A DNA stretch of 64,000 nt from a virus, in the IMG/VR virus record IMGVR_UViG_3300021963_000027, positions 1 through 64,000 of that record, one strand, 5' to 3'. Positions within the stretch are counted from its first letter, which is position 1. Each line of letters starts with the position of its first letter. This document shows positions 1,547-58,094 of the stretch, piece after piece. The translations under genes and the position numbers were made by a program. The notes beneath the pieces were generated by a model. That model was given only the letters and a program-made list of their open reading frames with translations. It made no database searches and was not told the DNA's origin.

Positions 1547-1567
1547 AAACTAAGGTATACTATAATC

Positions 1568-2035
1568 ATGAAACTTTTAGGAATAACAGACGGTGAGAAA
1601 TTCATCGCATCGCTCCATCACTATCATTATGTGACTCATGGTGACATGATGTTTGATGGTGGTCAACCCCATACTAATTTTTACGGTGGTTACAATCGCT
1701 ATTCTTTGCAAGGTGAAAGAGTTTGGTTTGAAGTTGATGAAGATTTCGCAGAAATTTATAACAAATATAATCGAAAAGAAATCAATGGTGTTTGGGATGT
1801 GAAACAAGGTAGAATCCTACCACCTGAAGAACATCCAAATTGTGATAGCATCGAAGAGCAAGTCGAGAATTTTATTTGGGGGACTCGTGGTAAAGATGGT
1901 AAATCACCTCTGAAATACGTTCTCCTAAAGAATTGCGATACTGATCATCTACAGAATATTTTGAAAGATGTTAAACATATTCAAGCAGAGACGAAGAAAG
2001 TAATTGAATACATTTTGAAAAATCGTGAAGTATGA
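1568..2035 (+). CDS. hypothetical protein
   Basis: Leaderless start after M-promoter variant. Confidence 0.85.
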   Translation: MKLLGITDGEKFIASLHHYHYVTHGDMMFDGGQPHTNFYGGYNRYSLQGERVWFEVDEDFAEIYNKYNRKEINGVWDVKQGRILPPEEHPNCDSIEEQVENFIWGTRGKDGKSPLKYVLLKNCDTDHLQNILKDVKHIQAETKKVIEYILKNREV

Positions 2036-2343
2036 AAATAACAGTTACAAAAACAGAAGTCTATGATTACGATTTGAAAAAAGAGATTCGTCGTTTGAAA
2101 AAATGCTTTAAAGGTGAACAGCTTCAAAGACAGATGGATATTCTTCATGCCGCTTTCATCGAAAGAGACGATATTAAATTTAGAGAACTTTATTATGCTT
2201 TACCTGATTGTAAAGAAAATGAGTGTAGTGAGATGGAATATGTTGGATCGTGGATTAATTTTTTTGGTGGTGGAAATTGGCGTGGGGAATATTTGGTAGA
2301 AGAGGATCATGTGGTAGATTTTGAAAAATTGGAAAAATTATGA
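2032..2343 (+). CDS. hypothetical protein
   Basis: ATGA-coupled ORF. Confidence 0.8.
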   Translation: MKITVTKTEVYDYDLKKEIRRLKKCFKGEQLQRQMDILHAAFIERDDIKFRELYYALPDCKENECSEMEYVGSWINFFGGGNWRGEYLVEEDHVVDFEKLEKL

Positions 2344-2609
2344 AAGAATGCTACTGTGGTAAAAAATCATCCGACAATTACACTTGGTGTGATGATTGCC
2401 TAATCAGGAATCACAAAGCTGTTGATGCGCTTTTTAAGGTGTGTCATGATAGTCACAGAAGCGGTGCTGGAGGCGCGAGAATGTGTATATGTGGTGCTGG
2501 TTGTGGCGGCAGTGAGGCTTGCAATGGGTTGTATTTACTACAATCAGCATTGAAGTATGGTGGTAAGCAAAAAGATGATGTGATGCGATTATTTGGATGG
2601 TATGAGTGA
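2340..2609 (+). CDS. Cys-rich hypothetical protein
   Basis: CYCG..CDDC, CICG motifs. Confidence 0.75.
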   Translation: MKECYCGKKSSDNYTWCDDCLIRNHKAVDALFKVCHDSHRSGAGGARMCICGAGCGGSEACNGLYLLQSALKYGGKQKDDVMRLFGWYE

Positions 2610-2841
2610 AGAACTTGGTAAAGAAATGTGGAGGAAACATCGCGCATTACTGGATAAACATTCTGAAGAACGCTCTTCTTTATTAGCAGAAGCTTCTAAA
2701 AAATGGTTGAAAGAAGAGGCTGAATTGTATCAAGAATGCTTTGAAAAGACAGGACACAAATTCGCTATTACACCAGAAAGAAGACGCAAATTAAATGGAA
2801 TTTTGGCAGAGCGTTGTCAATATTGTGGGAGAGAAAAATAA
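2602..2841 (+). CDS. hypothetical protein, C-terminal CxxC
   Basis: ORF ending at motif. Confidence 0.75.
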   Translation: MSEELGKEMWRKHRALLDKHSEERSSLLAEASKKWLKEEAELYQECFEKTGHKFAITPERRRKLNGILAERCQYCGREK

Positions 2842-2863
2842 AAAACTAGATTACAATAATAGC

Positions 2864-3205
2864 ATGAAAAGATTAACAAAAATAGACGTAAACCCTAACA
2901 GTCTTGTGCTTCAAGCGCAAACAATCGAAGAATATAGAATTGATCAAGAGCGTGGAGGATGGGGACAGTTCTTTGAAGGTAAATCCCCACCAATTGCTTA
3001 TGAAATGGTCGGTGAATTGATTGGTGAAATTGAAGTTGATCGACAAATTTTAATGAATCGATTTTTCCGATCTGACATCACAGGAGCATTGATTGAAATG
3101 CGTGGTGTTTTCCATAGCTCGATTGTTCGGAATGTGGAAGAGCGGAATGGCGTGACTTACGTTACGACTGATAATAGTTTATACAAAGTAGAAGATTATT
3201 CATAA
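2864..3205 (+). CDS. hypothetical protein
   Basis: Leaderless start after M-promoter (track start 2795 is upstream of it). Confidence 0.8.
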   Translation: MKRLTKIDVNPNSLVLQAQTIEEYRIDQERGGWGQFFEGKSPPIAYEMVGELIGEIEVDRQILMNRFFRSDITGALIEMRGVFHSSIVRNVEERNGVTYVTTDNSLYKVEDYS

Positions 3206-3208
3206 ACC

Positions 3209-3439
3209 ATGCAGAAACTAATTTTACGATACGATTGGTCAGTTCCTTACGAAGCGTCAGGAACTGAAGTCATCCCATTTGAATATGAATCACCTGAACG
3301 GGCTTATGTTGACTTTTGTGATTTACAAGAAAAGGCTGAATACTTTTTCTGGTTTTTGGGTCACGAATTTGAAAAAGATGTTGATGTCGAATTCTTTACT
3401 TTAGAAGAATGGTTTGAGCGTTATAAATTTAAACAATAA
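3209..3439 (+). CDS. hypothetical protein
   Basis: ORF. Confidence 0.75.
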   Translation: MQKLILRYDWSVPYEASGTEVIPFEYESPERAYVDFCDLQEKAEYFFWFLGHEFEKDVDVEFFTLEEWFERYKFKQ

Positions 3440-3831
3440 TGAAAAAAAATCAATTAATCGAACAATTGCAAAAAATCAAAGGCAATCCCGAAATCAAAAT
3501 GTGGAACGGGTATGTCGATGATTGGATGGATATTAAGCTTTGCGAACAAGAGTTTGTCAAAGAATCGGAGGACTTTATTCGTTGGGGTGTCGAGATGGCT
3601 TGGAAGGAGCGTAACCAAAAATGGGAAATCCCTGAAGAGGCACAGATTCAAATCGAAGAGGTTATAAAAGAAATGTTAAAAAATAGACAGTGGGAATTGC
3701 CGAATCAATATTTGCAAACAGAAGAAGATGAGAAGCGTTGGTATGGTAAAAATAAAAAGAAGTTTGTTTTAATCAACGGAAAAATTCGCGGCAAATCAAT
3801 TGAAGATCGACTTGGAAAAGTCAGCTACTAA
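3439..3831 (+). CDS. hypothetical protein
   Basis: TAATG-coupled ORF. Confidence 0.8.
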   Translation: MKKNQLIEQLQKIKGNPEIKMWNGYVDDWMDIKLCEQEFVKESEDFIRWGVEMAWKERNQKWEIPEEAQIQIEEVIKEMLKNRQWELPNQYLQTEEDEKRWYGKNKKKFVLINGKIRGKSIEDRLGKVSY

Positions 3832-3832
3832 T

Positions 3833-4924
3833 ATGAAACTACCAAATAAAGAAGAATTCAATTTCAAAGATTGCGTCATCGCTGGTGACGAATGTTGGCT
3901 CATTACACCAAAAGATATGAGCGTCAAATGGAACGACGAAAATACTCGTTTCCGTTCTTGTATTGTGCGTAAGTCTGACAATTTCGTAATTAGCCAAGGA
4001 TTCCGAAAATTTACAAATTTCGGAGAGCAACCAGCATTTGAACCATGGAAAGATTGTTGGAAATTTGAAGCGAGACACAAGTTGGATGGTAGTCTTTTAA
4101 TCATTTCTCGATACAAAGGTCAGTGGATTACCAGAACCCGTGGCACTGTAGATGCTCGCCAACTTCCTAATGGTCATGAGATTGACCTGTTAATTGAAAA
4201 ATATAAAAAATTTTTTGAAGATAGTGATGCTATTGATAGCATATCAGCATTAGAGCAATCTTGGTTATTTGAATGGACTACTCCGTCCAATATTATTGTA
4301 TTGAAAGAGTCCGATGAGTATGAATTAACTTTAATCGGTATTGTTTCCAATGAGGATGCAGCATACTATAGTCAGGCATATGTAGATATATGTGCGATTC
4401 AATACGATTTTAAACGTCCAGAGATGTATCATTACAATTCTGTTTCAGAGTGCATTGCTGATGTTACTGCTTGGAAAGGTAAAGAGGGCGTTGTCATTTA
4501 CTCTCCCAATGGTCAAACTCTCAAGAAAATCAAAGCAAGTGAATACTGTGAACTTCATAAAATTGCTACTGGAATTAAAAATGTAAAAAATGTTCTGGAT
4601 GTATTTATGGAGTCCCCAAAATTCACCAAATATGAAGATTTCTATAGCCATATTGAAAAGTTACTCGACTTTGAGATCGCGGAAAAATGCAAACCATTTA
4701 TCCAAGAAATCACTGATGCCTATGCTAAGTTCGTAAAGGGTGTGGATAATATGAATGAGCGTATTCCTTTTATTCAGAATTACGAAACTCGCAAAGAACA
4801 AGCAATGGCGATTCAACAAGAGTTCCGTGATTGGAAGACTGCTATTGCATTTCTTCTACTTGACAATCGTAAGGTTGATGATAAAGTTGTGCGCAAAGCA
4901 ATGGAGAAAATCTTAGAACTATGA
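3833..4924 (+). CDS. RNA ligase 1 (T4 Rnl1-like)
   Basis: Motif I HKLDGS, WLFEW, KEGVV, LKKIK nucleotidyltransferase motifs. Confidence 0.85.
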   Translation: MKLPNKEEFNFKDCVIAGDECWLITPKDMSVKWNDENTRFRSCIVRKSDNFVISQGFRKFTNFGEQPAFEPWKDCWKFEARHKLDGSLLIISRYKGQWITRTRGTVDARQLPNGHEIDLLIEKYKKFFEDSDAIDSISALEQSWLFEWTTPSNIIVLKESDEYELTLIGIVSNEDAAYYSQAYVDICAIQYDFKRPEMYHYNSVSECIADVTAWKGKEGVVIYSPNGQTLKKIKASEYCELHKIATGIKNVKNVLDVFMESPKFTKYEDFYSHIEKLLDFEIAEKCKPFIQEITDAYAKFVKGVDNMNERIPFIQNYETRKEQAMAIQQEFRDWKTAIAFLLLDNRKVDDKVVRKAMEKILEL

Positions 4925-4949
4925 AAGCGAAAAACAATAAAAAATAAAT

Positions 4950-5171
4950 ATGATCATCTGTCCATACTGCCAAAAGGTAGAAGCTAAATGGGTTTATATG
5001 CCTAATGGTGAATACGCCTGTGATGACTGTGTGCCACGAAAGTGTTCCTGTAATATGGAGCCGATAGATGGCAATTGGGAAAACGAAAATGAAAGTAATT
5101 GGGACTATATAAAAGATGAAAATGAAAAACATTTACCTTGCTGTGAATGGGAATGGATAGAAGAAATATGA
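4950..5171 (+). CDS. Cys-rich hypothetical protein
   Basis: CPYC..CDDC..CSC..PCCEW. Confidence 0.75.
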   Translation: MIICPYCQKVEAKWVYMPNGEYACDDCVPRKCSCNMEPIDGNWENENESNWDYIKDENEKHLPCCEWEWIEEI

Positions 5172-5593
5172 AGAAAATAGATTTTTTAAATAACTATATA
5201 CGACTTTATAAGAAAAATATTGCAGAAATTCTTGAAAAGAAGGTTAAACCTCTTAAAGAACTTATAGCAATCCTTGAGAAACAAAGGGATGAAATCATTT
5301 TAGATTCTCAGTTTACATGGAACGATAAGACATTCAATGTTTCTGATATGCGATGGTTTAACGACTGGATGTATGAGGATTGTCCTTATACTCCAGGATT
5401 TAAAAGTTATACGGAAACATTGCATATATTTTCCACAGACGGCAGATCTATCCATTTTAGCTTGCCTGAAAACGAACACGGATGGTATGATGAAAAACAC
5501 CAACAATTCAAAGACTTCGAAGATTTTTTTATTGACAAATTTGGAGTATCGTTTAAAATGGTATTGAAAAAAGGAGAAGTGAAAGAACAATAA
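5168..5593 (+). CDS. hypothetical protein
   Basis: ORF. Confidence 0.75.
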   Translation: MKKIDFLNNYIRLYKKNIAEILEKKVKPLKELIAILEKQRDEIILDSQFTWNDKTFNVSDMRWFNDWMYEDCPYTPGFKSYTETLHIFSTDGRSIHFSLPENEHGWYDEKHQQFKDFEDFFIDKFGVSFKMVLKKGEVKEQ

Positions 5594-5594
5594 T

Positions 5595-6032
5595 ATGTTA
5601 GAAAAAATTAAACAAGATACAATTCAAGCAATGCGCGATAAGATTCGAGTAGATTTGAGCGTATTACGTATGTTGCAGAGCGCAATTACCAATGCACAAA
5701 TTCTCAAGAGAGGCGAATTGGATAAAAATGAAATCATTGGGTTGATTCGTAAACAGATTGCACAACGACAAGATAGTGTAACACAATTTCGTGCTGGAGG
5801 TAGGGAAGAATTAGCCGATAAAGAGCTTGTGGAAATCACAGTTCTTCGACGCTACTTACCTACCGAATGGTCTGATGCTGAACTCGAACAGAACGTGCAA
5901 AACGCTATTGACAATCTTGGCGCATCAAGTAAAAAAGATATGGGTCGAGTGATCAAGGCAGTTGTTGAAGCAGCAAATGGTCAATGCGATAATAAGAGAA
6001 TCTCTCAAACAGTAGGAGCAAAATTGAATTGA
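5595..6032 (+). CDS. yqeY: GatB/YqeY domain protein
   Basis: IKQDTIQAMR..LRMLQSAI..QRQDSVTQF..GREEL..KKDMGRVIK. Confidence 0.9.
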   Translation: MLEKIKQDTIQAMRDKIRVDLSVLRMLQSAITNAQILKRGELDKNEIIGLIRKQIAQRQDSVTQFRAGGREELADKELVEITVLRRYLPTEWSDAELEQNVQNAIDNLGASSKKDMGRVIKAVVEAANGQCDNKRISQTVGAKLN

Positions 6033-6033
6033 T

Positions 6034-6435
6034 ATGAAATACAGAACAGAGAAAATTATAGATGATTTCGAATGGGATAAATTGGTGCAGGAAACCTATG
6101 GTAAACCATATATCTTTCAACAACAAAATGGTTGTGTTGGCAGAGGATTATATAGCTTAACAGTTCCAAGTGAAGAAGATTATGACGATGAAATGCCTGA
6201 CAGCATTCCTGAAGTAGTCAATGGAGAGATTCAGGGTATTAAATTTGCTAAATGGTTAGAACGAGATCCTAAACAACCTCTATCAGAGGGAGAAGAGAAT
6301 ATTAGCGAATATCAATGGGCTATTGATCTTTGGTGGGAACGTAATTTTTACCCTTGTTTGGGAACTATTGCAAACGATCTTCACAAAAAAGGTTTGTTGG
6401 AGGCTGGTGAGTATATGATTAATGTTGATTGGTGA
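6034..6435 (+). CDS. hypothetical protein
   Basis: ORF. Confidence 0.8.
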   Translation: MKYRTEKIIDDFEWDKLVQETYGKPYIFQQQNGCVGRGLYSLTVPSEEDYDDEMPDSIPEVVNGEIQGIKFAKWLERDPKQPLSEGEENISEYQWAIDLWWERNFYPCLGTIANDLHKKGLLEAGEYMINVDW

Positions 6436-6464
6436 TTCTAACTAAAAAAAAGATATAAATTAAA

Positions 6465-6707
6465 ATGAATAAAAATTTCGTATTGGCAACGAGTGCAACT
6501 TGCGGTCCATGTCACTTGCTTAAAGCAAGACTGGAGAAATTGGAATTAACTGTGGAAATTAAAAATTATAATGATCCACAAAACATTGAATGGTTTAAAA
6601 AACATGGTATTCGTAATGTGCCATGTTTGGTAGTGGAAGATGATACTACCTTCGAAATCATTCAAGGTATCGATGATATTATTGAAAAAATAAAACAAGG
6701 TGAATAA
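6465..6707 (+). CDS. glutaredoxin/thioredoxin-like protein
   Basis: TCGPC and NVP motifs. Confidence 0.85.
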   Translation: MNKNFVLATSATCGPCHLLKARLEKLELTVEIKNYNDPQNIEWFKKHGIRNVPCLVVEDDTTFEIIQGIDDIIEKIKQGE

Positions 6708-7350
6708 AATTATTAAACATAAATGGGAAGATAGAAATAAAATCTTTTTCTCAAGTGATTGGCATAATTACCATGATCCGAAGTGGGATGTTCCCATCTG
6801 GAAGATGCGTGGTTATTCGTCCCCTCAAGAATCTTTGGATGATGTAGTGAACAAAATCAATGCGAGAGTTAAAGAAGATGATTTTTTATATTTTCTTGGA
6901 GATGGATTTTTGAATGCTACAGATGAACAAGTTCTGGAATGGTTCTCACGAATCAATTGTAAGAATATTAATTACATCTATGGGAATCATGAATCAAACA
7001 TTTTCCGTATCTATCGGCGAACAGTATTGGAAAAATACGGTGATCCTGATATCGAAGTGTATCCCATGCGATTTAACAATGTAGTGTTCTTGGGTAATTA
7101 CCAAGAACTCCAAGTTGGTAAGAAAAGTGTTATCCTACAACATTTTTCGATTAAGACATGGCATAACAATTCTCGTGGGAGTATCCATCTTCATGGTCAT
7201 AGCCATAATACTGATAAAACAAGAAATCCAGAGTATCCAATGGGTAAATGCCTAGACTGCTCATGGGACTATAAGAAAGATGTGTGGTCTTGGGAAGAAA
7301 TTGAAGATATCATGTCAACGAAAGACGTTTTGATAACTGACCACCATTAA
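6700..7350 (+). CDS. calcineurin-like metallophosphoesterase
   Basis: SDWH, LGD, GNHE, HGHSH motifs. Confidence 0.9.
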   Translation: MNKIIKHKWEDRNKIFFSSDWHNYHDPKWDVPIWKMRGYSSPQESLDDVVNKINARVKEDDFLYFLGDGFLNATDEQVLEWFSRINCKNINYIYGNHESNIFRIYRRTVLEKYGDPDIEVYPMRFNNVVFLGNYQELQVGKKSVILQHFSIKTWHNNSRGSIHLHGHSHNTDKTRNPEYPMGKCLDCSWDYKKDVWSWEEIEDIMSTKDVLITDHH

Positions 7351-8353
7351 TACAATAATGAGAGATTATCATAGCTTTATCATATTTTCTTTTTAAGCAC
7401 ATGCTGTGATTATTATAAATGTATTTTACAATTTTGTTGATATTTTTATAACCACATGAGCGAACAGTGGAACTTTTACTTTTCTCATGTCTGATTCTTC
7501 TATCTATTTTGTAGCTCACTCCTATATCGTCTAATAAATTAGTGAGAGATGTCCAGTCTTGTTCGTATGTTCCTGATATAGAAAATTGAAACATTTTACG
7601 TTTTAAATTTACATAAAAACAACCATCACCATCTATCCAACCTCGAAGAAAGTCTTTATGGTATTCTTTTCTAATATTTTCTAATATTTTATTTGGTGAA
7701 ATTTTTGATTTATTACAAAAATCATTATCAAATAACCATTTAGTTAAACCATAATTTCTAATATATGCATCAATTTGTGGTTGTCTTCCGATTCTGGTTC
7801 TTTTTAGATAACTTAATTTACCTAATTTTGATAAAGAATGCTCAAAATCGTAAAAGTCTTTTTCGACGCATGAAAATTTTAATGATCTACTTTTATTAAC
7901 ATAAAGATAACCATCCGCCCAAAGTAATCCGAGAGCATATGATTGCATATCATCAAATTCTGGTGTGAAGTCTTTATATAGGGTTTTTTGTTTTTCATCC
8001 ATTCTTTGTTTTTTCGTTATTTCAAGTCCACTATCGGTTAAATTTAACCGTTTTTTAGATGCGAAAAATCTTACCAATTTTTCAGAGATATTGAGATTGT
8101 CTGCACAATAACGAGTTCCAAATTTTGGATAATTATCCAAGATAAATTTTTCTTGATCTTTTGTTATTTTCGACTCTTTCTTGGATATATCCGCAACATT
8201 TTTAATTTTTTGAGGTTTTTTAATATTATTTCTATGTGTGATGTGTCTTATCGCATTTGGAGTGGTGTTTAATTTATTCGCTATTTCTAAAGTTGTCAAT
8301 CTACCATAATTGCTTTTGATAAATTCTAAAATTTCTGGTGTTAATTTGATCAT
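7310..8353 (-). CDS. LAGLIDADG homing endonuclease
   Basis: YALGLLWADG and FLRGWIDGDG motifs; TAAATA 6 nt upstream of ATG. Confidence 0.9.
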   Translation of the reverse strand: MIKLTPEILEFIKSNYGRLTTLEIANKLNTTPNAIRHITHRNNIKKPQKIKNVADISKKESKITKDQEKFILDNYPKFGTRYCADNLNISEKLVRFFASKKRLNLTDSGLEITKKQRMDEKQKTLYKDFTPEFDDMQSYALGLLWADGYLYVNKSRSLKFSCVEKDFYDFEHSLSKLGKLSYLKRTRIGRQPQIDAYIRNYGLTKWLFDNDFCNKSKISPNKILENIRKEYHKDFLRGWIDGDGCFYVNLKRKMFQFSISGTYEQDWTSLTNLLDDIGVSYKIDRRIRHEKSKSSTVRSCGYKNINKIVKYIYNNHSMCLKRKYDKAMIISHYCINGGQLSKRLSLT

Positions 8354-8419
8354 ATTAAGTATTTAATGTAACAGGACACAAATTTTACAAAAACATAGAA
8401 AAAAATATTCCAATCTCCC

Positions 8420-8447
8420 TTGACAAATGGAAAAACAATATTAACAT
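8420..8447 (+). promoter_or_regulatory. sigma70-like promoter TTGACA-N16-TAACAT
   Basis: Upstream of ATG 8458. Confidence 0.55.
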
Positions 8448-8457
8448 AATAAAACTT

Positions 8458-8742
8458 ATGCAAACAGAAACAAAACAACAAAAAAATATGGAAAACAACA
8501 AAACAACAAAAACAGTAAAAAACAACCGAAAAAACAAACAGTGGCTACGTAGCCGTGATCAACGCAAACATCCAAAATTGTTCAATGTGCAGATGGTGCA
8601 GATGAAAGACGGATCGTTCCATATCCTTGGAGGAGGTGCTAATGTTGCCATTTCTAAGAACCAACACTCCACACAATGGGCGAGTGTAGATGTTCGAGAC
8701 TTGGCAACCGAGATTAGGATGAACGGTGTTCGTTCGTTCTGA
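8458..8742 (+). CDS. basic hypothetical protein
   Basis: ORF between promoter and terminator. Confidence 0.75.
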   Translation: MQTETKQQKNMENNKTTKTVKNNRKNKQWLRSRDQRKHPKLFNVQMVQMKDGSFHILGGGANVAISKNQHSTQWASVDVRDLATEIRMNGVRSF

Positions 8743-8749
8743 TCCCACC

Positions 8750-8785
8750 GAAAAATGCCCCTGAAATATGGGGCATTTTTCATTT
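8750..8785 (+). terminator. intrinsic terminator
   Basis: GAAAAATGCCCC-loop-GGGGCATTTTTC. Confidence 0.8.
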
Positions 8786-8798
8786 ACTATGGGAAGGG

Positions 8799-8855
8799 TT
8801 AATGTGTGGTATATACAACATTAACTCGATTTATGAGTGATATACCACACATTAA
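8799..8855. repeat. perfect 16-bp inverted repeat
   Basis: TTAATGTGTGGTATAT (8799-8814) / ATATACCACACATTAA (8840-8855). Confidence 0.9.
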
Positions 8856-8877
8856 AAAACTAGAATACACTCTGCTC

Positions 8878-9363
8878 ATGAATATTTTTTCAACTTCCGA
8901 ATCTCCTGATCAATCCGCTAGATGGTTAGTGGATAAACATTGCGTAAAAATGTTGCTCGAATCAACACAACTCTTATGCACAGCTTATCATGAGCAAGGT
9001 ATCGAAGCACCTTACAAACCATCACACCGCTCGCATCCGTCATCTATTTGGACAAGAGCAAGCTGGGATAACTTCCAATGGTTGATTGCTCATGCTCATG
9101 CTATTGCTGACGAATATACAGCACGTTATGGTAAGATACACAAGTCTCAAGCAGTATTAGAATGGTGTGAAGACCATGCTCATCTATTGGGGTTTGACTC
9201 TTGGGATTTGACACCATTCGCTATCGCTATTGCTGATGACTGCGAGTGTCGTAAGCTATCAAATTTTGAATCTTTGTCAGCAATTGACAAATACCGACAA
9301 TATATTATCTTGGACAAGAAGCATATCCATGCTTGGAAAAGAAACAAACCCGATTGGATTTAA
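8878..9363 (+). CDS. pyrimidine-dimer DNA glycosylase (DenV-like family)
   Basis: MNIF..DKHCVKMLLESTQLL..YKPSHRSHPSSIW; leaderless start. Confidence 0.8.
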   Translation: MNIFSTSESPDQSARWLVDKHCVKMLLESTQLLCTAYHEQGIEAPYKPSHRSHPSSIWTRASWDNFQWLIAHAHAIADEYTARYGKIHKSQAVLEWCEDHAHLLGFDSWDLTPFAIAIADDCECRKLSNFESLSAIDKYRQYIILDKKHIHAWKRNKPDWI

Positions 9364-9368
9364 TAATT

Positions 9369-9581: not shown

Positions 9582-9595
9582 AATACAATCGGTGC

Positions 9596-10030: not shown

Positions 10031-10034
10031 TTTT

Positions 10035-50212: not shown

Positions 50213-50234
50213 AAAACTAGAATAGAATTAGAAC

Positions 50235-50447: not shown

Positions 50448-50461
50448 AATACAATTACACC

Positions 50462-50755: not shown

Positions 50756-50769
50756 AATACACTTGGGAC

Positions 50770-50973
50770 ATGAAAAGATACAGATACGATCCTTATTGTG
50801 ATAGCTTCAAGTGCTTCCAAGGAATGGAAGAATCACCTGATGGTGATTGGGTGAACATCGAAGCAAGAGAACTCCTGAAACGTGCGATGGATTTACTACA
50901 AGATTATTGCACGGAACTCAATGGCATGAATTGCTATCTCAGCAAAGAGATTGAAGAATTTCTTAAAAACTAA
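50770..50973 (+). CDS. hypothetical protein
   Basis: Leaderless. Confidence 0.8.
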   Translation: MKRYRYDPYCDSFKCFQGMEESPDGDWVNIEARELLKRAMDLLQDYCTELNGMNCYLSKEIEEFLKN

Positions 50974-50987
50974 GATTCAATAAACAC

Positions 50988-51191
50988 ATGAACAGAAGCA
51001 GAATCGCATTGGTTTACATGGATGATGGAAACAATTTCTTCATCGAAAATCCCCCGAATGGTAATCCCGAAACATGGATTGATCATCATGTTTATTCCAT
51101 CTCTAATGTGGAGAATGTCATAGTTTATGATTTGGGAGGGGTGGTAGAGAATTGGGTAAATCCTGATGTGTCATCCGAAGAAGAGGAATAA
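50988..51191 (+). CDS. acidic hypothetical protein
   Basis: Leaderless. Confidence 0.75.
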   Translation: MNRSRIALVYMDDGNNFFIENPPNGNPETWIDHHVYSISNVENVIVYDLGGVVENWVNPDVSSEEEE

Positions 51192-51213
51192 AAAACTAGA
51201 TTAAAATAAACAC

Positions 51214-51351
51214 ATGATGACACTTGAACAAATTATCAATTTCTTCAAATCTCTGGAAGAAATCACCCATGAAAACATGGAATCTGAATCAGATAGAACG
51301 GAATTGTTGCGCTGTGTTGCTCTAGCAGAAAATGCTCTTCGCGGTGGTTAA
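51214..51351 (+). CDS. hypothetical protein (45 aa)
   Basis: Leaderless. Confidence 0.65.
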   Translation: MMTLEQIINFFKSLEEITHENMESESDRTELLRCVALAENALRGG

Positions 51352-51395
51352 TCAACATGATTAAAAACATTGATAAACCAAGGAAAAACGACTGC

Positions 51396-51433
51396 GACAA
51401 AATGACGCAGGGGTGTGACAAAATGACGCAGGG
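51396..51433. repeat. 17-bp direct repeat GACAAAATGACGCAGGG x2, period 21 bp
   Basis: 51396-51412 and 51417-51433; related copy at 53704-53724. Confidence 0.85.
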
Positions 51434-51485
51434 ATAGACGGATATAGAAAAGAATATAAATAAAAAACTAGAGTAAAATTTTACT

Positions 51486-51728
51486 ATGCTCAACATCACC
51501 ATTGATCCCAAAGAAATCCGCGCTGAATATCGTGAAGACCAAAGCAATCGCGGATGGTTGTATATCTCAGTTCCTAACGGATGGGATGACGTATCAAAAT
51601 TGTGTAAGAAAGTTCTCACGTATGACAATCGCAAATTCTTTTATAGTGGTTGGAATTCCGATAGAAATGATTGTTTCTTCAAGGAAGAACTGGTAGGAAG
51701 TTCCACGGTGGTAGCACGAATCAATTAA
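51486..51728 (+). CDS. hypothetical protein
   Basis: Leaderless. Confidence 0.8.
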   Translation: MLNITIDPKEIRAEYREDQSNRGWLYISVPNGWDDVSKLCKKVLTYDNRKFFYSGWNSDRNDCFFKEELVGSSTVVARIN

Positions 51729-51749
51729 AAACTAGAATAAACTGATAAC

Positions 51750-51929
51750 ATGATAAGACAATACACCAATCAACTACTGGAAATGATCGACAACGGAATC
51801 CTTGATGCTGAAACGGTTCTCCGTTCGTGTCTCTCTTATATGTCCGAAGCAGAAGTGCAGGACATGGCAGAATCCGAGGGATTCATCGAAGAAGAGGAAG
51901 AGGAAGAGGAAGAGGACGAAGAAGAGTAA
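51750..51929 (+). CDS. acidic protein with poly-Glu tail
   Basis: Leaderless. Confidence 0.75.
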   Translation: MIRQYTNQLLEMIDNGILDAETVLRSCLSYMSEAEVQDMAESEGFIEEEEEEEEEDEEE

Positions 51930-51939
51930 AATCCCCCCT

Positions 51940-52029
51940 CAGTCTCAATAAGGGCATTTTCAAGAATCCTTGATATATCAATGAAAAAAGTCATTTTGCT
52001 CTAGGACTATTTGAAGCTTATTGAGACTG
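51940..52029. repeat. 90-bp element with 13-bp terminal inverted repeats
   Basis: CAGTCTCAATAAG / CTTATTGAGACTG; internal palindrome TTGATATATCAA. Confidence 0.85.
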
Positions 52030-52066
52030 GAAAACACAAATTAAAAAACTAGACTAATATGTGTAT

Positions 52067-52141
52067 GTTGTCGGTGGCGAAGTGGTAACGCGAGGCTGAA
52101 TTAACAGCAAGAAACGTGAGTTCGATTCTCACCCGACGACA
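52067..52141 (+). ncRNA. tRNA-like RNA with 6-nt AATTAA anticodon loop
   Basis: Acceptor GTTGTCGG/CCGACGAC, D-arm, GTGAG-TTCGATT-CTCAC; starts at +1 of M-promoter. Confidence 0.7.
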
Positions 52142-52174
52142 CACTCTTTAAAAACTAACCTAAAATAATACCAC

Positions 52175-52402
52175 ATGAAAGACATCGCAGTAATCAAACT
52201 TCATAATAGCACAGTAAGTTCCGTTTATAGCACGGACACTGTAGAAGGTGCAAAAGAACTGGTGCGGGATTTGTTCTATTTCCAATTCAAACGCACTCTA
52301 AATGATGAAGAAAATGACCAATTGGAAGACATGTTAGAAGTTTACAATGATGAAGATCATGATAATATTTTCACATTCAGCATCGCATTTGTCAATCCTT
52401 AA
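52175..52402 (+). CDS. hypothetical protein (paralog of 48230)
   Basis: Motif-bounded. Confidence 0.8.
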   Translation: MKDIAVIKLHNSTVSSVYSTDTVEGAKELVRDLFYFQFKRTLNDEENDQLEDMLEVYNDEDHDNIFTFSIAFVNP

Positions 52403-52423
52403 AAACTAGACTAAACTGATACC

Positions 52424-52756
52424 ATGACCAACACCGACCTACAACAACCAAACGATCTATCAAACAAAGGCAAACAAGCCCATGCTGCAATCGTGGCATT
52501 TCTTGAGAAGCACAAACTCACCTACACAGGGGGATGCAAAGCGTTCTATTCACCTAAAGAGTGGAAGGAGCGGGAAGAGGATTACGGGTGTGACAGTGAG
52601 CTTGTCGTGGTGTATGATGGGGGTGATCACGGAGACGCTTTCTCATACAGCCGTGAGAATTACAAGATGATCGAAGCAATGAATGAGATTCTGAAACCGC
52701 TCGGTCTTTACAGTGAACCATGCACCTGCTGGTACACAGCGATCTACCTCAGTTAA
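52424..52756 (+). CDS. hypothetical protein
   Basis: Leaderless. Confidence 0.85.
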   Translation: MTNTDLQQPNDLSNKGKQAHAAIVAFLEKHKLTYTGGCKAFYSPKEWKEREEDYGCDSELVVVYDGGDHGDAFSYSRENYKMIEAMNEILKPLGLYSEPCTCWYTAIYLS

Positions 52757-52778
52757 AAAACTAGACTAACATTGCACC

Positions 52779-52982
52779 ATGATCATTCGATACACTAGCA
52801 AGATGGGATATAAAGCAATGCCAGATGAGAAGTTCAAAGGAACAGTTCTTGAGGCGAAAGCTCATGCGATGGGGAAAATGAATGATGATACTTACACCAT
52901 CTCCATTGAAGACAAGAAAAACAAAATTGTTTTTAACTATGGCTACACGGGAGTATCTCTCGGACAAAATAAAGTGAAATAA
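52779..52982 (+). CDS. hypothetical protein
   Basis: Leaderless. Confidence 0.8.
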   Translation: MIIRYTSKMGYKAMPDEKFKGTVLEAKAHAMGKMNDDTYTISIEDKKNKIVFNYGYTGVSLGQNKVK

Positions 52983-53003
52983 AAACTAGACTAACATTGC
53001 ACC

Positions 53004-53114
53004 ATGACATACCTATTCATTCCGACACTCATCATATCATTCATAGCTATCGGCTCCCGCAGCTTCATATTCTATGCTACTGCGATAGTCATGTGGTGTC
53101 TGACACTCAGCTAA
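53004..53114 (+). CDS. 36-aa hydrophobic peptide
   Basis: Leaderless. Confidence 0.65.
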   Translation: MTYLFIPTLIISFIAIGSRSFIFYATAIVMWCLTLS

Positions 53115-53146
53115 GAATTAAAAAACTAGACTAAACTGATTCCGTT

Positions 53147-53272
53147 ATGAAATACAAACACTGCACAATCCTCAAAGCAATCGCTGGTTACAATGTATAT
53201 GCCAGCAATGACATCTTGAATGTTCCTACCATCGCAGCAGCAAAGGCACTGATCGACGGATTAAAAAACTAG
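53147..53272 (+). CDS. 41-aa peptide
   Basis: Motif-bounded, ends LKN*. Confidence 0.65.
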   Translation: MKYKHCTILKAIAGYNVYASNDILNVPTIAAAKALIDGLKN

Positions 53273-53309
53273 ACTAAACTGATAACGTAACCAATAACCA
53301 CTGAATACC

Positions 53310-53567
53310 ATGACCAATAAAGAAATCATTACAAAATTCGTAAAAGGCGCAACCACTGGCAAGATCACCCGCAACAATCCATATGCAGGGGGCAAGCTCA
53401 CTCCGCTCTTCATCGAGGGTGACACTATCTACTCTTATGGACACCACTTCCCCCTCGCTCGTCGCAATGGCGATGGCACTTTCTGGGTGAATCCCGACAA
53501 GTATAGCGTCACCACCAGCAAGCATCAGTCGCTTGTGCGCTACGCAATCAGCAAATTTTCGGTGTAA
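53310..53567 (+). CDS. hypothetical protein
   Basis: IYSYGHHFPLA..YSVTTSKHQS. Confidence 0.85.
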   Translation: MTNKEIITKFVKGATTGKITRNNPYAGGKLTPLFIEGDTIYSYGHHFPLARRNGDGTFWVNPDKYSVTTSKHQSLVRYAISKFSV

Positions 53568-53611
53568 CATGGCAAAGTCCCCTCTCTTCCGTGGTAGGAA
53601 GAGAGGGGCAA
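53565..53611 (+). other. GC-rich stem-loop
   Basis: CCCCTCTCTTCC/GGAAGAGAGGGG then CAA. Confidence 0.75.
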
Positions 53612-53643
53612 CCCTTTTTAAAAAACTAGACTAAACTGTTACC

Positions 53644-53718
53644 ATGCCTGACATCACCGACCTATCCGACAGCGACCTGCAAGACCTGATTGACTACTTG
53701 CAAGGTGTGACAAAATGA
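53644..53718 (+). CDS. 24-aa acidic peptide
   Basis: Leaderless. Confidence 0.55.
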   Translation: MPDITDLSDSDLQDLIDYLQGVTK

Positions 53719-53769
53719 CGCACCTGAAAAACCAATCCAATTAAAAAACTAGCATAGAATAGCTATACC

Positions 53770-53931
53770 ATGCAAGACTTTAAAGAATATATTCAATCCG
53801 CTCTCGACTCCAACGTTCTCTGTGAGGTTATGGGATGGGACACAAAACACGGTCCAACAGTGGAACAAATGCAAGCACTGGACACCCTTTTGGGTGAGAG
53901 TCTCGAATCTTTAAAAACTAGACTAAACTGA
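53770..53931 (+). CDS. hypothetical protein (53 aa)
   Basis: Motif-bounded. Confidence 0.65.
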   Translation: MQDFKEYIQSALDSNVLCEVMGWDTKHGPTVEQMQALDTLLGESLESLKTRLN

Positions 53932-53938
53932 TTACGTC

Positions 53939-54079
53939 ATGAAAACTTACTACGCGCATATCCGTCTGACTAACCGCGAGCGCAGTCTGCTCGCGCAAGC
54001 AATCCGCATCAATCGCCACCAGCGCAAAACCTTCACCCGTAAAGATGCCCACAATCTGGCATGGGTGCTGTTCGCATAA
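53939..54079 (+). CDS. basic peptide (46 aa)
   Basis: Motif-bounded. Confidence 0.65.
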   Translation: MKTYYAHIRLTNRERSLLAQAIRINRHQRKTFTRKDAHNLAWVLFA

Positions 54080-54108
54080 TTAAAAAACTAGAGTAAACTG
54101 ATTACGTC

Positions 54109-54396
54109 ATGAAAACACAAAAAGAGATTAAATTAAAAGACGGTTCAACGCTTGCCAAAGGTCTGCCAGTATCATTCGTTGCTGGCAGTGATAGCCGATG
54201 CCTTGTGCATTCTCCCGCGCATTCTGAGCCGTTGCAAGTGCGCATCACAAGCGCGTTCAAAGCACCTTCCATGGCTTCTCTGGAACGCTGGGGAATGGAT
54301 GGCGTGTGCAAGACTCCCACGGGCAAGCGTGTCGAGCCTGATGGATACGGTTCTGATGGTAGCCCGTCATGGCTGCTGGTTTTCGGACTCATCTGA
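54109..54396 (+). CDS. hypothetical protein
   Basis: CKTPTGKRVEPDG..DGSPSWLL. Confidence 0.85.
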   Translation: MKTQKEIKLKDGSTLAKGLPVSFVAGSDSRCLVHSPAHSEPLQVRITSAFKAPSMASLERWGMDGVCKTPTGKRVEPDGYGSDGSPSWLLVFGLI

Positions 54397-54456
54397 ATCC
54401 AAGGGGGGAGCGCATCCTACACGCTCATTAAAAAACTAGACTAAACTGATTGCACC

Positions 54457-54612
54457 ATGAAAGTCTATATCTCTTACAACTGTGGTTTCGCTTGCATCCG
54501 TGAAATGGGAACTGACAAAGTTCTCCACGAACTCAAAGGCAAGCGTTCTATTGAACAGCACTTTGCTACTGGTAAAACCTATGCCAAGAAAATGGGATGG
54601 GAACTCGCATAA
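54457..54612 (+). CDS. hypothetical protein (51 aa)
   Basis: Motif-bounded. Confidence 0.65.
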   Translation: MKVYISYNCGFACIREMGTDKVLHELKGKRSIEQHFATGKTYAKKMGWELA

Positions 54613-54640
54613 TTAAAAACTAGCCTAAACTGATTGCACC

Positions 54641-54805
54641 ATGAAATACAACGTAACTAATATTCAATGGGATACCGATGGTATCCCTAACAAATCCCTT
54701 CCGACAAGCATCACCCTTGAAGTGGAAGATGAAGATGATGTGATAGATGATCTTTCCGATGAATATGGCTTTTGCATATTCTCTGCTGACATTGAAGAAG
54801 CGTAA
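54641..54805 (+). CDS. acidic hypothetical protein (54 aa)
   Basis: IQWDTDG..LSDEYGFC. Confidence 0.75.
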   Translation: MKYNVTNIQWDTDGIPNKSLPTSITLEVEDEDDVIDDLSDEYGFCIFSADIEEA

Positions 54806-54833
54806 TTAAAAACTAGCCTAAACTGATTGCACC

Positions 54834-54929
54834 ATGAAACTCGACACTAACAAATGCAAGGGACTTCCAATGGGAGTCCGCAATCGCAAGCGCACGATCC
54901 TATCCAAGATCATCCGCTGGTTCAATTAA
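54834..54929 (+). CDS. basic peptide (31 aa)
   Basis: Motif-bounded. Confidence 0.6.
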   Translation: MKLDTNKCKGLPMGVRNRKRTILSKIIRWFN

Positions 54930-54951
54930 AAAACTAGACTAAACTACTACC

Positions 54952-55254
54952 ATGTCCAACACCATCAACACCCTGTCAGGCAAGTGCGCGAAATCATTCG
55001 CGTGGAAACCATTCGCGTCCGCGACTATCGCAAAAGGTAAAATTCCCTTTGCTTTCTGGGAGTCAAACCGATCAAAACGTGAGTGCAATAGCATCACGGT
55101 GATTGAGTTCGACTCGGAGCATGAAATTTCATCATGGATCTCGGATCTCTGCTCTGGTGCAATCATTTGCGATTCCAACTATTTCTGGTGCGTCTCAGTG
55201 AATGGTAAATTCGAATCATCAAAATCTCGCTACGGTGGATACCTCAGTGCCTAA
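54952..55254 (+). CDS. hypothetical protein
   Basis: Leaderless. Confidence 0.8.
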   Translation: MSNTINTLSGKCAKSFAWKPFASATIAKGKIPFAFWESNRSKRECNSITVIEFDSEHEISSWISDLCSGAIICDSNYFWCVSVNGKFESSKSRYGGYLSA

Positions 55255-55297
55255 CGGTGCTGGGGCTTTTAAAAAACTAGACTAAACTGTTACTACC

Positions 55298-55504
55298 ATG
55301 AGACTTCAAACCATCATCAATCAATTCGCCATCACCACGCGCAAAACACGCGAGGGCAATACCATCGTGGAAGCACCCATCGGCACTGAGTATCGTCGCT
55401 TTCTTTTCAACCTTCAGGACTACGTTGTCACGGGTTGCGCTGGTGATATGGTATGGCTTAGTCCACGCCAAGGTTTCTATGGCGGTGTCCCATACGGCAA
55501 TTAA
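55298..55504 (+). CDS. hypothetical protein
   Basis: Motif-bounded. Confidence 0.8.
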   Translation: MRLQTIINQFAITTRKTREGNTIVEAPIGTEYRRFLFNLQDYVVTGCAGDMVWLSPRQGFYGGVPYGN

Positions 55505-55529
55505 AAAACTAGACTAAACTGTTACTACC

Positions 55530-55766
55530 ATGAGAAAAGGATACGGACCAACCAACGTTAGCTACCACCTCCCCCTTCAGCGTTTCACCGAGATGGTGAA
55601 GCAGGGGATCAACATCGCTCAGGGAGTCGATGACAATAACAAAGTGCTTTCCAGCACACTGCCGCAAAACCTATCGGAAAATTCAATCAAAAGAATTTTC
55701 GACGATGCGGATTGCGTCTGCTACCACGGAGGTGTTCAGATGATCATCCCCCGTCATCTTGCTTAA
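55530..55766 (+). CDS. hypothetical protein
   Basis: Motif-bounded. Confidence 0.8.
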   Translation: MRKGYGPTNVSYHLPLQRFTEMVKQGINIAQGVDDNNKVLSSTLPQNLSENSIKRIFDDADCVCYHGGVQMIIPRHLA

Positions 55767-55826
55767 AGACTAGGGGGGAGCGCATCCTACACGCTCATTA
55801 AAAAACTAGAGTAAACTGTTACTACC

Positions 55827-56039
55827 ATGATTACTGTATTGACCATCGAAGACCTTGAAACAATCATCACCAAAACGTCCCCGCGCCTTAGTGCGCTCGG
55901 AATCGTGTACGCAATCATCAATGATGATACTGATGAAGAAGTCACAAGCCGATACCCCACAATCGAGGAAGCGTGGGATGAATTTAAAAAGACTTGGGTT
56001 GTCGGGACGTTCACCGTTCTCACAATCTTTAGATCCTGA
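55827..56039 (+). CDS. hypothetical protein
   Basis: Motif-bounded. Confidence 0.8.
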   Translation: MITVLTIEDLETIITKTSPRLSALGIVYAIINDDTDEEVTSRYPTIEEAWDEFKKTWVVGTFTVLTIFRS

Positions 56040-56068
56040 TTAAAAAACTAGAGTAAACTGTTACTACC

Positions 56069-56305
56069 ATGAATACTACCACTGCTACCACCGCCACCGC
56101 CAAGAACTTCATCGTTGCCTTCCACGACTGGCAAGGCAATCGCCATACAGTTCAAGTCAAAGCTTCCGATAAAACGTCCGCATACGATGCGGCGTGGCAA
56201 TGGATTGAAGAGAATCGCGGCGACCAACTGGAAATTGAATTTGCGGGTGTTAAAGAGATTGTCTATCTCAAAGACATCATCGCAGAAGCACTGGCTGCAA
56301 ATTAA
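56069..56305 (+). CDS. hypothetical protein
   Basis: Motif-bounded. Confidence 0.8.
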   Translation: MNTTTATTATAKNFIVAFHDWQGNRHTVQVKASDKTSAYDAAWQWIEENRGDQLEIEFAGVKEIVYLKDIIAEALAAN

Positions 56306-56327
56306 AAAACTAGAGTAAAATAGCTCT

Positions 56328-56420
56328 GTCAACCCCTTCCAACTATCGCGAAGGGTCAACCTGAACCATCAACTACCCCGTCTCTCCCGACCACAGGGAG
56401 GGGCGGGGCAACCAATCTGC
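56328..56420 (+). ncRNA. ORF-less M-promoter cassette with two hairpins
   Basis: No ATG; CCCTT/AAGGG and 13-bp GC stem 56376-56408. Confidence 0.45.
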
Positions 56421-56451
56421 TTTTAAAAAACTAGAGTAGACTGCTACTACC

Positions 56452-56670
56452 ATGAATTACATCACTCCAGAATACGACTTCACAGGACGCTGCACTCCAT
56501 CGGAGGAAGCACAACGCAAGGAAGCGCAAGCGTTCGCCGCCTATCGCGAAAAGGAAGAAGCTAAAAAATTCAAGGTGCGCGATGCCTTCGGGTTCTCCCG
56601 CTACGCCACCTTGGAAGAAGCGCAAGCGTTCGCCGCCACCCTCAAGAATGCAGAGATCATCATCCTATAA
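56452..56670 (+). CDS. hypothetical protein with internal repeat EEAQRK/AFAA
   Basis: Motif-bounded. Confidence 0.75.
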   Translation: MNYITPEYDFTGRCTPSEEAQRKEAQAFAAYREKEEAKKFKVRDAFGFSRYATLEEAQAFAATLKNAEIIIL

Positions 56671-56699
56671 TTAAAAAACTAGAGTAAACTGATTACGCC

Positions 56700-56909
56700 A
56701 TGAATGAAATTACTGCTGACGAGGCACTTGCCCAAATTCGCTCCATGTCCGATAGAGAGTTAGTTGCTTTCTGGAATGTCTTGCAATTCTCTTCCCGTAT
56801 GGTAGGGAGCGGTCGCGACACTTTCAGAGAACCACTGGTTTCTCTTGTCATGAGTGAGCGCAAAATCCCTCATGAGATTGGGAAGCGAACTCTAACATCT
56901 AACATCTAA
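56700..56909 (+). CDS. hypothetical protein
   Basis: Motif-bounded. Confidence 0.75.
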   Translation: MNEITADEALAQIRSMSDRELVAFWNVLQFSSRMVGSGRDTFREPLVSLVMSERKIPHEIGKRTLTSNI

Positions 56910-56942
56910 CATCTAACGCCCACGGTCTAACAGATCGTGGGC
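56891..56942 (+). repeat. 52-bp direct repeat copy 1: (TCTAACA)3 + hairpin
   Basis: Identical to 58097-58148. Confidence 0.9.
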
Positions 56943-56969
56943 TTTTAAAAACTAGAGCAAACTGTTGCC

Positions 56970-58094
56970 ATGCCTACTACCAATACTACCACTGCTACCA
57001 TCCCCGCCTCCGCCCGTGCAGCATTCATCGCTGCCCTCGTCAAACTCAATCGTCGCGCTGCTCGCTTGGGCTGCGCACCACTGACAATCGTATCGACAGT
57101 CGATACGATCGTGGAGATCGACAGAGTGAAGTTCCCTGCGCTCCGTCTCGAAATCGCAGGTACAACACCAACTTTTTCAGGTTGGACGTTTGCCGCCTCT
57201 GTCGAAGCACTTGACACTGGAAAAAACATCTTCCATGGTGCTAGCGACATCCCTGCGCGATTCGCTAGCACTGGTCACGCCTGTGAGCATTGCAACCAAA
57301 ATCGCAAGCGCAACTCCAGCTTCATCTTGAGCCATGAAGCAGGTGACTACAAGCAGGTTGGTTCGACCTGCATCAACGACTTCCTCGGTGGTAATCACTT
57401 GCCAGTGTTCAATTTCCTCTCGAATGCGCGTGAGATTCTCAGCGAGTTTGAGAGCTTCGCAAACGCTACCATTGACAGCGTGAGCGTGATCACCACCCTC
57501 GTGGCATCCGCCGCCACGATTCGAGAGCATGGCTTCGCGAAGAAAACAGGATGGGATGGTGAAGGTGCGCGTCCCACGGCATCTCTCGTCGAATCGTTTC
57601 TTTTGGACGTTCGCAACCCTAAGCGTTTCGTTCCTGACATCACGGAAAACGATGAGGCGAAAGCAGAAGCCGTTCGCGCTTGGTTGGTCAACCACGAAGG
57701 AACGCAAAGCGATTACCTGCAAAAGCTGATCGACTTGGCAGCAGCAACACGGGTGTCATCTCGAAACATCGGTATCCTCGCATCGTCCATCGCCGCCTAT
57801 GATCGCGAGTTAGAGCGCAAAGCACAAGTCCTTGCCAGTCCTTCCAATCACGTTGGAACGGTGGGCAAGCGTGAGTCGTTCACCGTCTCTCTCACTGGTT
57901 GCAAGGTGCTTCCCGACTATGGCTATGGTTGCTCAAATCTCTATTCATTCAAGGACGAAAACGGCAACATCCTGAAGTGGAAAACACAAGCGCAACTCGA
58001 ACGCACTGGCACGTTCCAGATCACTGGAACGGTGAAATCACACGGTGCGTGGAACGGCGTGAGTGAAACCGAACTGACTCGGTGCAAAGTCTAA
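56970..58094 (+). CDS. 374-aa protein with CxxC Zn motif and C-terminal OB-fold-like region
   Basis: CEHCNQNRKRN..VGSTC; HVGTVGKRESF..FKDENGNILKW..ITGTVKSH. Confidence 0.8.
   Translation: MPTTNTTTATIPASARAAFIAALVKLNRRAARLGCAPLTIVSTVDTIVEIDRVKFPALRLEIAGTTPTFSGWTFAASVEALDTGKNIFHGASDIPARFASTGHACEHCNQNRKRNSSFILSHEAGDYKQVGSTCINDFLGGNHLPVFNFLSNAREILSEFESFANATIDSVSVITTLVASAATIREHGFAKKTGWDGEGARPTASLVESFLLDVRNPKRFVPDITENDEAKAEAVRAWLVNHEGTQSDYLQKLIDLAAATRVSSRNIGILASSIAAYDRELERKAQVLASPSNHVGTVGKRESFTVSLTGCKVLPDYGYGCSNLYSFKDENGNILKWKTQAQLERTGTFQITGTVKSHGAWNGVSETELTRCKV

Follow-up and report, generated by a model that had tools for sequence, protein, structure and literature searches.

How does a phage begin the translation of genes that carry no Shine-Dalgarno (SD) signal? 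The question is raised by the stretch of DNA analysed here (the window), bases 1-64000 of a 184,181-bp IMG/VR virus record (IMGVR_UViG_3300021963_000027) that is rated 89% complete, along which a 26-nucleotide (nt) repeat recurs in front of one start codon after another. An earlier note on this DNA had read the repeat as the mark of a genome-scale leaderless translation programme. Our analysis makes it probable that the repeats are compact promoters with the transcription start on the ATG or a few nt before it, such that most of the predicted messages would be leaderless and free of SD sequences. A second, late class of promoters with the layout TAAATA-N5-ATG is an addition to what the earlier note had found.

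The early motif can be written as TTAAAAAACTAGA-N-TAnAMT-N5-Y-R (Y, pyrimidine; R, purine) and was counted in the strict form AAAACTA-N3-TA-N3-T. There are 93 strict copies, all on the plus strand between 1546 and 61424, and the remaining 120 kb of the record has one per strand; the looser string AAAACTA occurs 104 times on the plus strand of the window and twice on the minus strand. The array is thus present where the earlier note had placed it, at 1556-56972, but the end given there is too short, with copies reaching 61424. When the A of the ATG is taken as +1, the logo reads T-26 T A A A A A A C T A G A-14, N, T-12 A n A M T-7, followed by five weakly constrained bases, C or T at -1 and A or G at +1. 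Positions -36..-29 hold no information, that is, the logo has no -35 element, and canonical -35/-10 sites show no excess (72 found against 72.2 expected). The array and the units that best illustrate its variants are the following:

1546..61449, plus strand: early (pre-replicative) promoter array, 93 strict copies of the 26-nt motif
9570..9598, plus strand: typical exact unit, with the box at -26..-14, TACAAT at -12..-7, then CGGTGC and the ATG at 9596, which opens a 144-amino-acid (aa) open reading frame (ORF)
49920..49948, plus strand: exact unit with TAGAAT as the -10 hexamer, ATG at 49946
54080..54111, plus strand: near-leaderless unit, predicted +1 the G at 54106 (after C), 3-nt leader GTC, ATG at 54109
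33245..33302, plus strand: leadered unit, predicted +1 at 33271 and ATG at 33300, separated by an A/C-rich, SD-free leader of 29 nt; DUF932 protein of 342 aa
23170..23279, plus strand: GTG unit, predicted +1 the G of the GTG at 23196, hydrophobic mini-ORF of 27 aa
56918..56972, plus strand: unit with a terminator-like hairpin (GCCCACGGTC...GATCGTGGGC, then TTTT) upstream and abutting the motif, ATG at 56970

The spacing points to the start site. In 57 of the 93 strict copies, the TAnnnT hexamer and the ATG are exactly 6 nt apart, which puts the start codon on the predicted +1; base composition would give about 1.8 such copies. The five starts that had been singled out as examples (9596, 17004, 21086, 29581 and 49946) each show TAnnnT, 6 nt and ATG. 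In another 27 copies, the predicted leader is 2-5 nt long (2 nt in five, 3 nt in 19, 4 nt in one and 5 nt in two), and the other nine include five units whose leaders of 17-33 nt are rich in A and C and poor in G, a 27-codon ORF that starts with GTG, and RNA genes. For bacterial RNA polymerase (RNAP), the modal start is a non-template purine that follows a pyrimidine and lies 7 bp downstream of the -10 element; starts displaced from there by over 2 bp downstream or over 1 bp upstream are rare (PMC5730371). In the early motif, the modal position coincides with the A of the ATG. The pyrimidine at -1 and the purine at +1 are kept in 90 of the 93 strict copies, those before tRNA genes among them, and the earlier observation that they persist where the gap between hexamer and ATG is 8, 9 or 11 nt is borne out: the step is present in 33 of the 36 copies without an ATG at +1, so that it cannot be owed to the start codon itself. 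The frames opened by the ATGs that the motif marks are at least 40 aa long in 60 of 63 cases as compared to 30% for all ATGs, and in about 60% of the units the stop codon of the upstream gene lies inside the motif (TAA at -25/-24, TAG or TAA at -17). Recent duplication of a cassette is ruled out as the source of the regular spacing, given that the 86 motif-led ORFs represent 81 unrelated sequence families. The GTG mini-ORF (23196-23279, VKKILTIIALVV...) stops 2 nt before the ATG at 23282 of a gene for a 459-aa RNA-ligase-like protein (23282-24661), a pair that resembles a leaderless upstream ORF coupled to a main gene.

Is the motif then a signal for the polymerase or for the ribosome? Several copies stand before non-coding genes, which speaks for a transcription signal and against a translation signal:

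52041..52142, plus strand: motif copy before an unusual tRNA, predicted +1 at 52067, which is the first base of the tRNA (52067 according to ARAGORN, 52068 according to Rfam)
42718..42822, plus strand: motif copy before a tRNA-Met(CAT), predicted +1 at 42744, tRNA start at 42748/42749, 4-5 nt after it
49106..49206, plus strand: motif copy, then a non-coding, tRNA-like stretch whose first base is the predicted +1, 49132 (49110+22)

The tRNA at 52067-52142 scores 36.7 bits against the Rfam tRNA model and is drawn by ARAGORN with 8 bp in the acceptor stem, 3 bp in the D stem and an anticodon loop of irregular form, under the label tRNA-?(Asn|Stop)(tt). The tRNA-like stretch within 49110-49206 includes the T-arm GGTTCAAGTCC, and ARAGORN reports nothing there. 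Two further loci belong with these RNA genes. A 92-nt Rfam tRNA match (31.3 bits) at 41645-41736, without an ARAGORN call, may hold an insertion. Downstream of the motif copy at 56306, some 100 nt (56328-56426) are free of ORFs, and a GC-rich hairpin and a T-run precede the next motif there; this stretch is a candidate small RNA.

An independent line of evidence is provided by the late genes. The arrangement TAAATA-N5-ATG occurs at 49 sites, on both strands and across the whole genome, with no other spacing reaching more than 6 sites per strand; 45 of the 49 open frames of at least 40 codons, among them those of the tail sheath and other virion proteins. Only three of these 45 lie in the window:

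42653..42666, minus strand: late unit TAAATA-N5-ATG, ATG at 42655, 315-aa frame
59245..59258, minus strand: late unit TAAATA-N5-ATG, ATG at 59247, 284 aa
63274..63287, plus strand: late unit TAAATA-N5-ATG, ATG at 63285, 124 aa

Because the search pattern itself fixes TAAATA at -11..-6, only the flanks of the 45 sites are informative: -13 is mostly A or G, -12 mostly C or T, and there is little information further upstream and no -35 element. The late promoters of T4 consist of an 8-bp box, TATAAATA, that occupies -13..-6 with its first base at -13 (PMC2988020). With the A of the ATG as +1, the TAAATA found here has the same register, and the record encodes a homologue of gp55, the late sigma factor of T4, at 115856-116137 (E-value 1.2e-11, 38% identity), where a weak match to Sigma70_r2 is found as well. 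What the late class shares with the T4 late promoters, which depend on gp55, gp33 and gp45 (PMC2988020), is the TAAATA core at -11..-6, the lack of a -35 element and the gp55-type gene; the core and the lack of a -35 element are also common to the late box of cyanophages, NATAAATA. In T4, however, the box precedes a leader and there is no N5-ATG peak (10 sites against 5 in a reversed control), and in cyanophage S-SM1 the layout is likewise absent (1 site against 3 in the control), the boxes being followed by leaders of about 20 nt, whereas here the ATG is at +1 in 45 genes. In HTVC008M, a cultured SAR11 phage, the late layout is present but weaker, with 14 sites against 4 in the control.

The geometry recurs in relatives of the phage, in one of them with an altered early box. 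An exact 18-mer of the motif is found in 29 stretches on 19 IMG/VR contigs, mostly with the motif on one strand and the ATG mostly at the 22-nt register, and a complete 207-kb relative with a capsid protein 85% identical carries more than 70 copies of the motif. A complete 202-kb relative (IMGVR_UViG_3300032281_000616; capsid 76%) has 86 copies of an altered box, AAACACTA-N3-TAnAAT, all on one strand (minus) of a 64-kb arm at about 135-199 kb. Every one of the 86 has AAACACTA where the phage of the window has AAAAACTAG; the conservation of -15..-13 is lost, TAnAAT at -12..-7 is kept, the ATG is at the unchanged 22-nt register in 40 of the 86, and TAAATA is found at -11 for 44 genes. Since the box has changed in concert while the register stayed the same, a dedicated protein that recognises the upstream box is suggested by this comparison. 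In a 211-kb relative (capsid 62%), the early motif is absent and the late peak is blurred, and across 80 capsid-linked loci the late N5 peak is retained down to 58-67% capsid identity.

The messages predicted in this way would offer the ribosome no SD sequence. With a threshold of -4.5 or below for the free energy of anti-SD pairing, such pairing is found upstream of 3% of the early starts and 7% of the late starts, as against 14.6% of random positions, in agreement with the earlier report that no SD sequence is visible. The same is true of genes without a promoter. When 309 ORFs were called in a crude way, an early promoter was fused to 67 of them and a late one to 42, 92 start between -12 and +15 nt from the preceding ORF on the same strand, and about 100 are unclassified, with miscalls among them; roughly half of the phage genes are promoter-less, packed at -12..+15 nt from the preceding gene, and preceded by A/T-rich, SD-free regions. 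It follows that the host ribosome must initiate without SD pairing on internal cistrons, too.

A simple model can accommodate these observations. The repeat would be a promoter of pre-replicative genes that lacks a -35 element, with TAnAMT at -12..-7 and the conserved box at -26..-14 standing in for the missing element, to be read either by the host sigma factor and RNAP or by a phage-specific factor. Transcription would start at the pyrimidine-purine step six bases past the hexamer. In about 60% of the units, the starting purine would be the A of the ATG itself, yielding a leaderless message that begins with AUG; in about 30%, it would lie 2-5 nt upstream of the ATG; and the remaining units would drive tRNAs, other small RNAs or messages with SD-free, A/C-rich leaders. 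Late genes would follow a parallel design, with the gp55-type core TAAATA at -11..-6, five bases and the ATG. Ribosome loading would take place at the 5'-terminal AUG and need no SD pairing, and, with terminators being rare, genes would also be carried within longer read-through RNAs, on which initiation would be SD-independent or coupled. The motif, its register and strand bias, the pyrimidine-purine step, the lack of SD sequences, the gp55 homologue and the conservation in relatives are observed; the actual 5' ends, the way ribosomes load and the identity of the protein that reads the box are the parts of this model that we infer. The enzyme in use is likely to be the host RNAP, because the gp55 homologue is the only sigma-like gene found and a phage RNAP was not: among the 20 largest ORFs beyond the window, none matched an RNAP family in PHROG, and a search for a T7-type RNAP gave no match, an uninformative result because its positive control gave none either. 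Given that the geometry, the relatives and the independent second class of promoters all agree, the reading in which transcription starts on the ATG or a few nt before it is well supported, and the estimate of about 80 leaderless or near-leaderless genes in the earlier note holds up; we would put the early genes of this kind at some 80-90, a prediction from sequence.

Several considerations weigh against this reading. Terminator-like hairpins are not enriched between genes (15 found, 11.7 expected), and a strong hairpin is found just upstream of only about 5 of 102 motif copies, mostly in the GC-richer 52-57 kb (the mean minimum free energy upstream of the motif is -6.6 versus -6.0 in controls, with 9 of 102 copies below the 5th percentile of the controls). 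The RNA that covers each ATG may, accordingly, be largely read-through RNA instead of 5'-terminal RNA. The start-site rules applied here are those of the E. coli RNAP and may not be those of the host; the altered box of the relative also hints at a dedicated recognition factor, which may have spacing rules of its own. Finally, the hexamer overlaps with another TAnnnT-like one, TAGAnT at -17..-12, from which a start near -5 could result. The scarcity of terminators makes it probable that transcripts continue through the units that follow, and that read-through RNAs exist alongside leaderless starts, each gene probably being 5'-terminal on one RNA and internal on others. Polycistronic transcripts, which the earlier note would have counted against leaderless expression, and leaderless starts are thus probably both real. 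As a separate observation, a long palindrome at 58160-58260, where the plus-strand early arm meets genes of the minus strand, is made up of two motif-like copies that face each other (AAAAACTAGGGGGG... and its complement); this structure could be a bidirectional terminator.

So could the same repeat be read in a different way? The overlapping hexamer suggests the closest alternative, namely the same promoter with TAGAnT as the -10 element, a start near -5 and SD-less leaders of 4-6 nt. In its favour, the invariance of T-17, A-16 and T-12 equals that of T-12, A-11 and T-7, and a purine is present at -5 in 81 of 104 copies. Nevertheless, the pyrimidine-purine step is much sharper at -1/+1 (pyrimidine in 99 and purine in 102 of 104) than at -6/-5 (pyrimidine in 55 of 104), the tRNA begins at the predicted +1 and not at -5, the A of the ATG is also the start that the late class indicates independently, and the relative with the altered box has given up -15..-13 while retaining TAnAAT at -12..-7. 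We consider a start near -5 improbable.

Still more doubtful, in our estimate, is the possibility that the repeat is no promoter at all and acts at the RNA level, on long read-through transcripts, as a site of SD-independent ribosome landing or re-initiation that follows the stop codon of the upstream gene, or as a processing site. The stop codons buried in some 60% of the motifs fit such a role, as do the A-rich character of the motif, the rarity of terminators and the translation, without SD, of promoter-less genes in the same genome. Against it, the motif is also found before tRNAs and other genes that are non-coding, where a translation signal would not be expected; the pyrimidine-purine step and the TAnnnT-N6 geometry are features of transcription; the five units with leaders of 17-33 nt show that the distance to the start codon is not fixed; and the late counterpart matches a known promoter whose sigma factor is encoded in the genome.

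The earlier note had gone further and proposed that the phage could shut down or bypass canonical host initiation while its own leaderless genes stay translated, with the help of an initiator-like tRNA. The genome-wide lack of SD sequences would suit this scheme, and a tRNA with initiator features is present:

61654..61726, plus strand: tRNA-Met of probable initiator type with a U1.U72 mismatch, A11:U24, G30:C40 and G31:C39

Its anticodon stem has two of the three G:C pairs of bacterial initiators, 29:41 being U:A. Nothing connects this tRNA with the layout of the promoters. Initiator tRNAs are common as phage cargo. The difficulty lies with the genes that are internal or coupled and SD-free, about half of the total, for which SD-independent internal initiation must persist; since host ribosomes would initiate without SD on these cistrons, there is no need to postulate a bypass of canonical initiation, and this part of the original proposal is unsupported. 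Moreover, a gene for bS21 was not found in the phage, and the host may itself be poor in SD sequences; a weaker late layout is seen in the SAR11 phage HTVC008M. We rank a disabling of SD-dependent host initiation below the RNA-level signal.

Least probable among the alternatives weighed is that the repeat serves primarily as a recombination substrate for the shuffling of one-gene cassettes, with promoter activity being secondary. The picture of 93 near-identical 26-nt repeats flanking 81 unrelated small ORFs in a hypervariable arm does invite this idea, and the PeSL elements of T4-like phages are thought to shuffle cassettes (PMC2839356, PMC4122927), but the hallmarks of PeSLs (stem-loop, -35 element, SD) are absent, the single-base register of the ATG, the pyrimidine-purine step and the strand bias would go unexplained, and recombination is in any case compatible with promoter function. 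Two other candidates were rejected. A T4 middle promoter of the MotA/AsiA kind does not fit, the box here being at -26..-14 and of a different sequence as opposed to a MotA box centred near -30; no Pfam matches to MotCF or AsiA were found, a weak negative given that these families are narrow. An archaeal-type promoter with TTAAAAAA as the TATA box fails too: the centre of the box would be near -22, the invariant CTAGA and TAnAMT would have no explanation, and the late sigma factor encoded is of the bacterial type. The centre of archaeal TATA boxes is at about -27.

If, then, compact promoters fused to start codons are the favoured explanation, are there precedents? The nearest are the Thermus phages phiYS40 and Lalka27a, most of whose transcripts have been found experimentally to be leaderless (Sevostyanova et al., 2007; bioRxiv 10.64898/2026.04.20.719267). 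Most of their transcripts start at the A or G of the start codon, there is no -35 element, and the host RNAP is re-targeted for late genes. In those phages, the starts have been mapped, the host phylum is one in which leaderless messages are usual, and the promoters are different; the unrelated phage described here is T4-like, its starts are predicted from sequence, and it uses a 26-nt unit 93 times. In cells, certain genes of Deinococcus-Thermus and Actinobacteria, described as "-10 adjacent to the ORF", have a bare -10 element a few bp before the start codon, are leaderless and can dispense with a -35 element, as is predicted here; these genes have a degenerate -10 element only, whereas the phage has an additional, invariant 13-bp box and a GC content of 36%, unlike those phyla. 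Among T4-like phages, PeSLs, which consist of a stem-loop, an AT-rich tract, a -35 element, a -10 element, an SD sequence and a start codon (PMC4122927), share the theme of repeated early-promoter cassettes that flank ORFan genes in hyperplastic regions (PMC2839356, PMC4122927), but the units of the window have no -35 element and no SD, rarely come with a hairpin (about 5 of 102 copies), and abut the ATG. Phage phiKZ has no leaderless transcripts, AR9 has long untranslated regions, and in the paper on an OM43 phage the word "leaderless" appears only within a reference. We found no description in the literature of a fusion between promoter and ATG in T4-like phages.

What kind of phage is this? 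Its structural and packaging genes include those for a gp23-type capsid protein, portal, large terminase, tail sheath and baseplate wedge, and the record further encodes DNA polymerase, helicases, ribonucleotide reductase, NAMPT and a CCA-adding enzyme. The best cultured matches of the capsid protein, gp23 of T4-like cyanophages, are only 32-34% identical, whereas its metagenomic relatives number in the thousands, several of them on complete genomes of 200-230 kb. The phage is, accordingly, a distant, uncultured and abundant T4-like myovirus. No DNA match was found among cultured phages, and the matches in GTDB point to no consistent host, being spread among metagenome-assembled genomes with unrelated labels (Bacteriovoracaceae, Terrimicrobiaceae, gut Firmicutes and Bacteroidales). 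Within the early arm, a LAGLIDADG homing-endonuclease gene lies on the opposite, minus strand (7310-8353). The segment at 52000-58000 has a GC content of 0.43-0.51, against about 0.36 elsewhere, and its cassettes mostly have 3-nt leaders (ACC, GTC, GCC), TAAACT hexamers and the few strong terminator hairpins; it may be a separately acquired or younger block.

A bolder version of the model can be formulated for the clade. Throughout these abundant T4-like phages of about 200 kb, a third to a half of the genes would be truly leaderless, with two classes of promoters fused to their start codons, and the early 13-bp box (AAAAACTAG here, AAACACTA in the relative) would be read by a co-evolving phage factor, a system akin to sigma appropriation that would be coupled to SD-free translation and possibly to selective expression during takeover of the host. 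We regard this full scenario as possible though rather unlikely. Even the more modest reading has consequences. If the predicted 5' ends are true, these phages would be a second lineage built on leaderless messages, unrelated to the Thermus phages and very abundant, and their gene expression would represent a sharp break from the T4 paradigm of promoter, leader and SD sequence. Each 26-nt unit of promoter plus start would be a compact natural expression cassette. For annotation, the motif allows start codons to be placed with single-base precision and helps to call small ORFs as well as RNA genes, and the protein that reads the box could be sought through the concerted change that the box shows between relatives.

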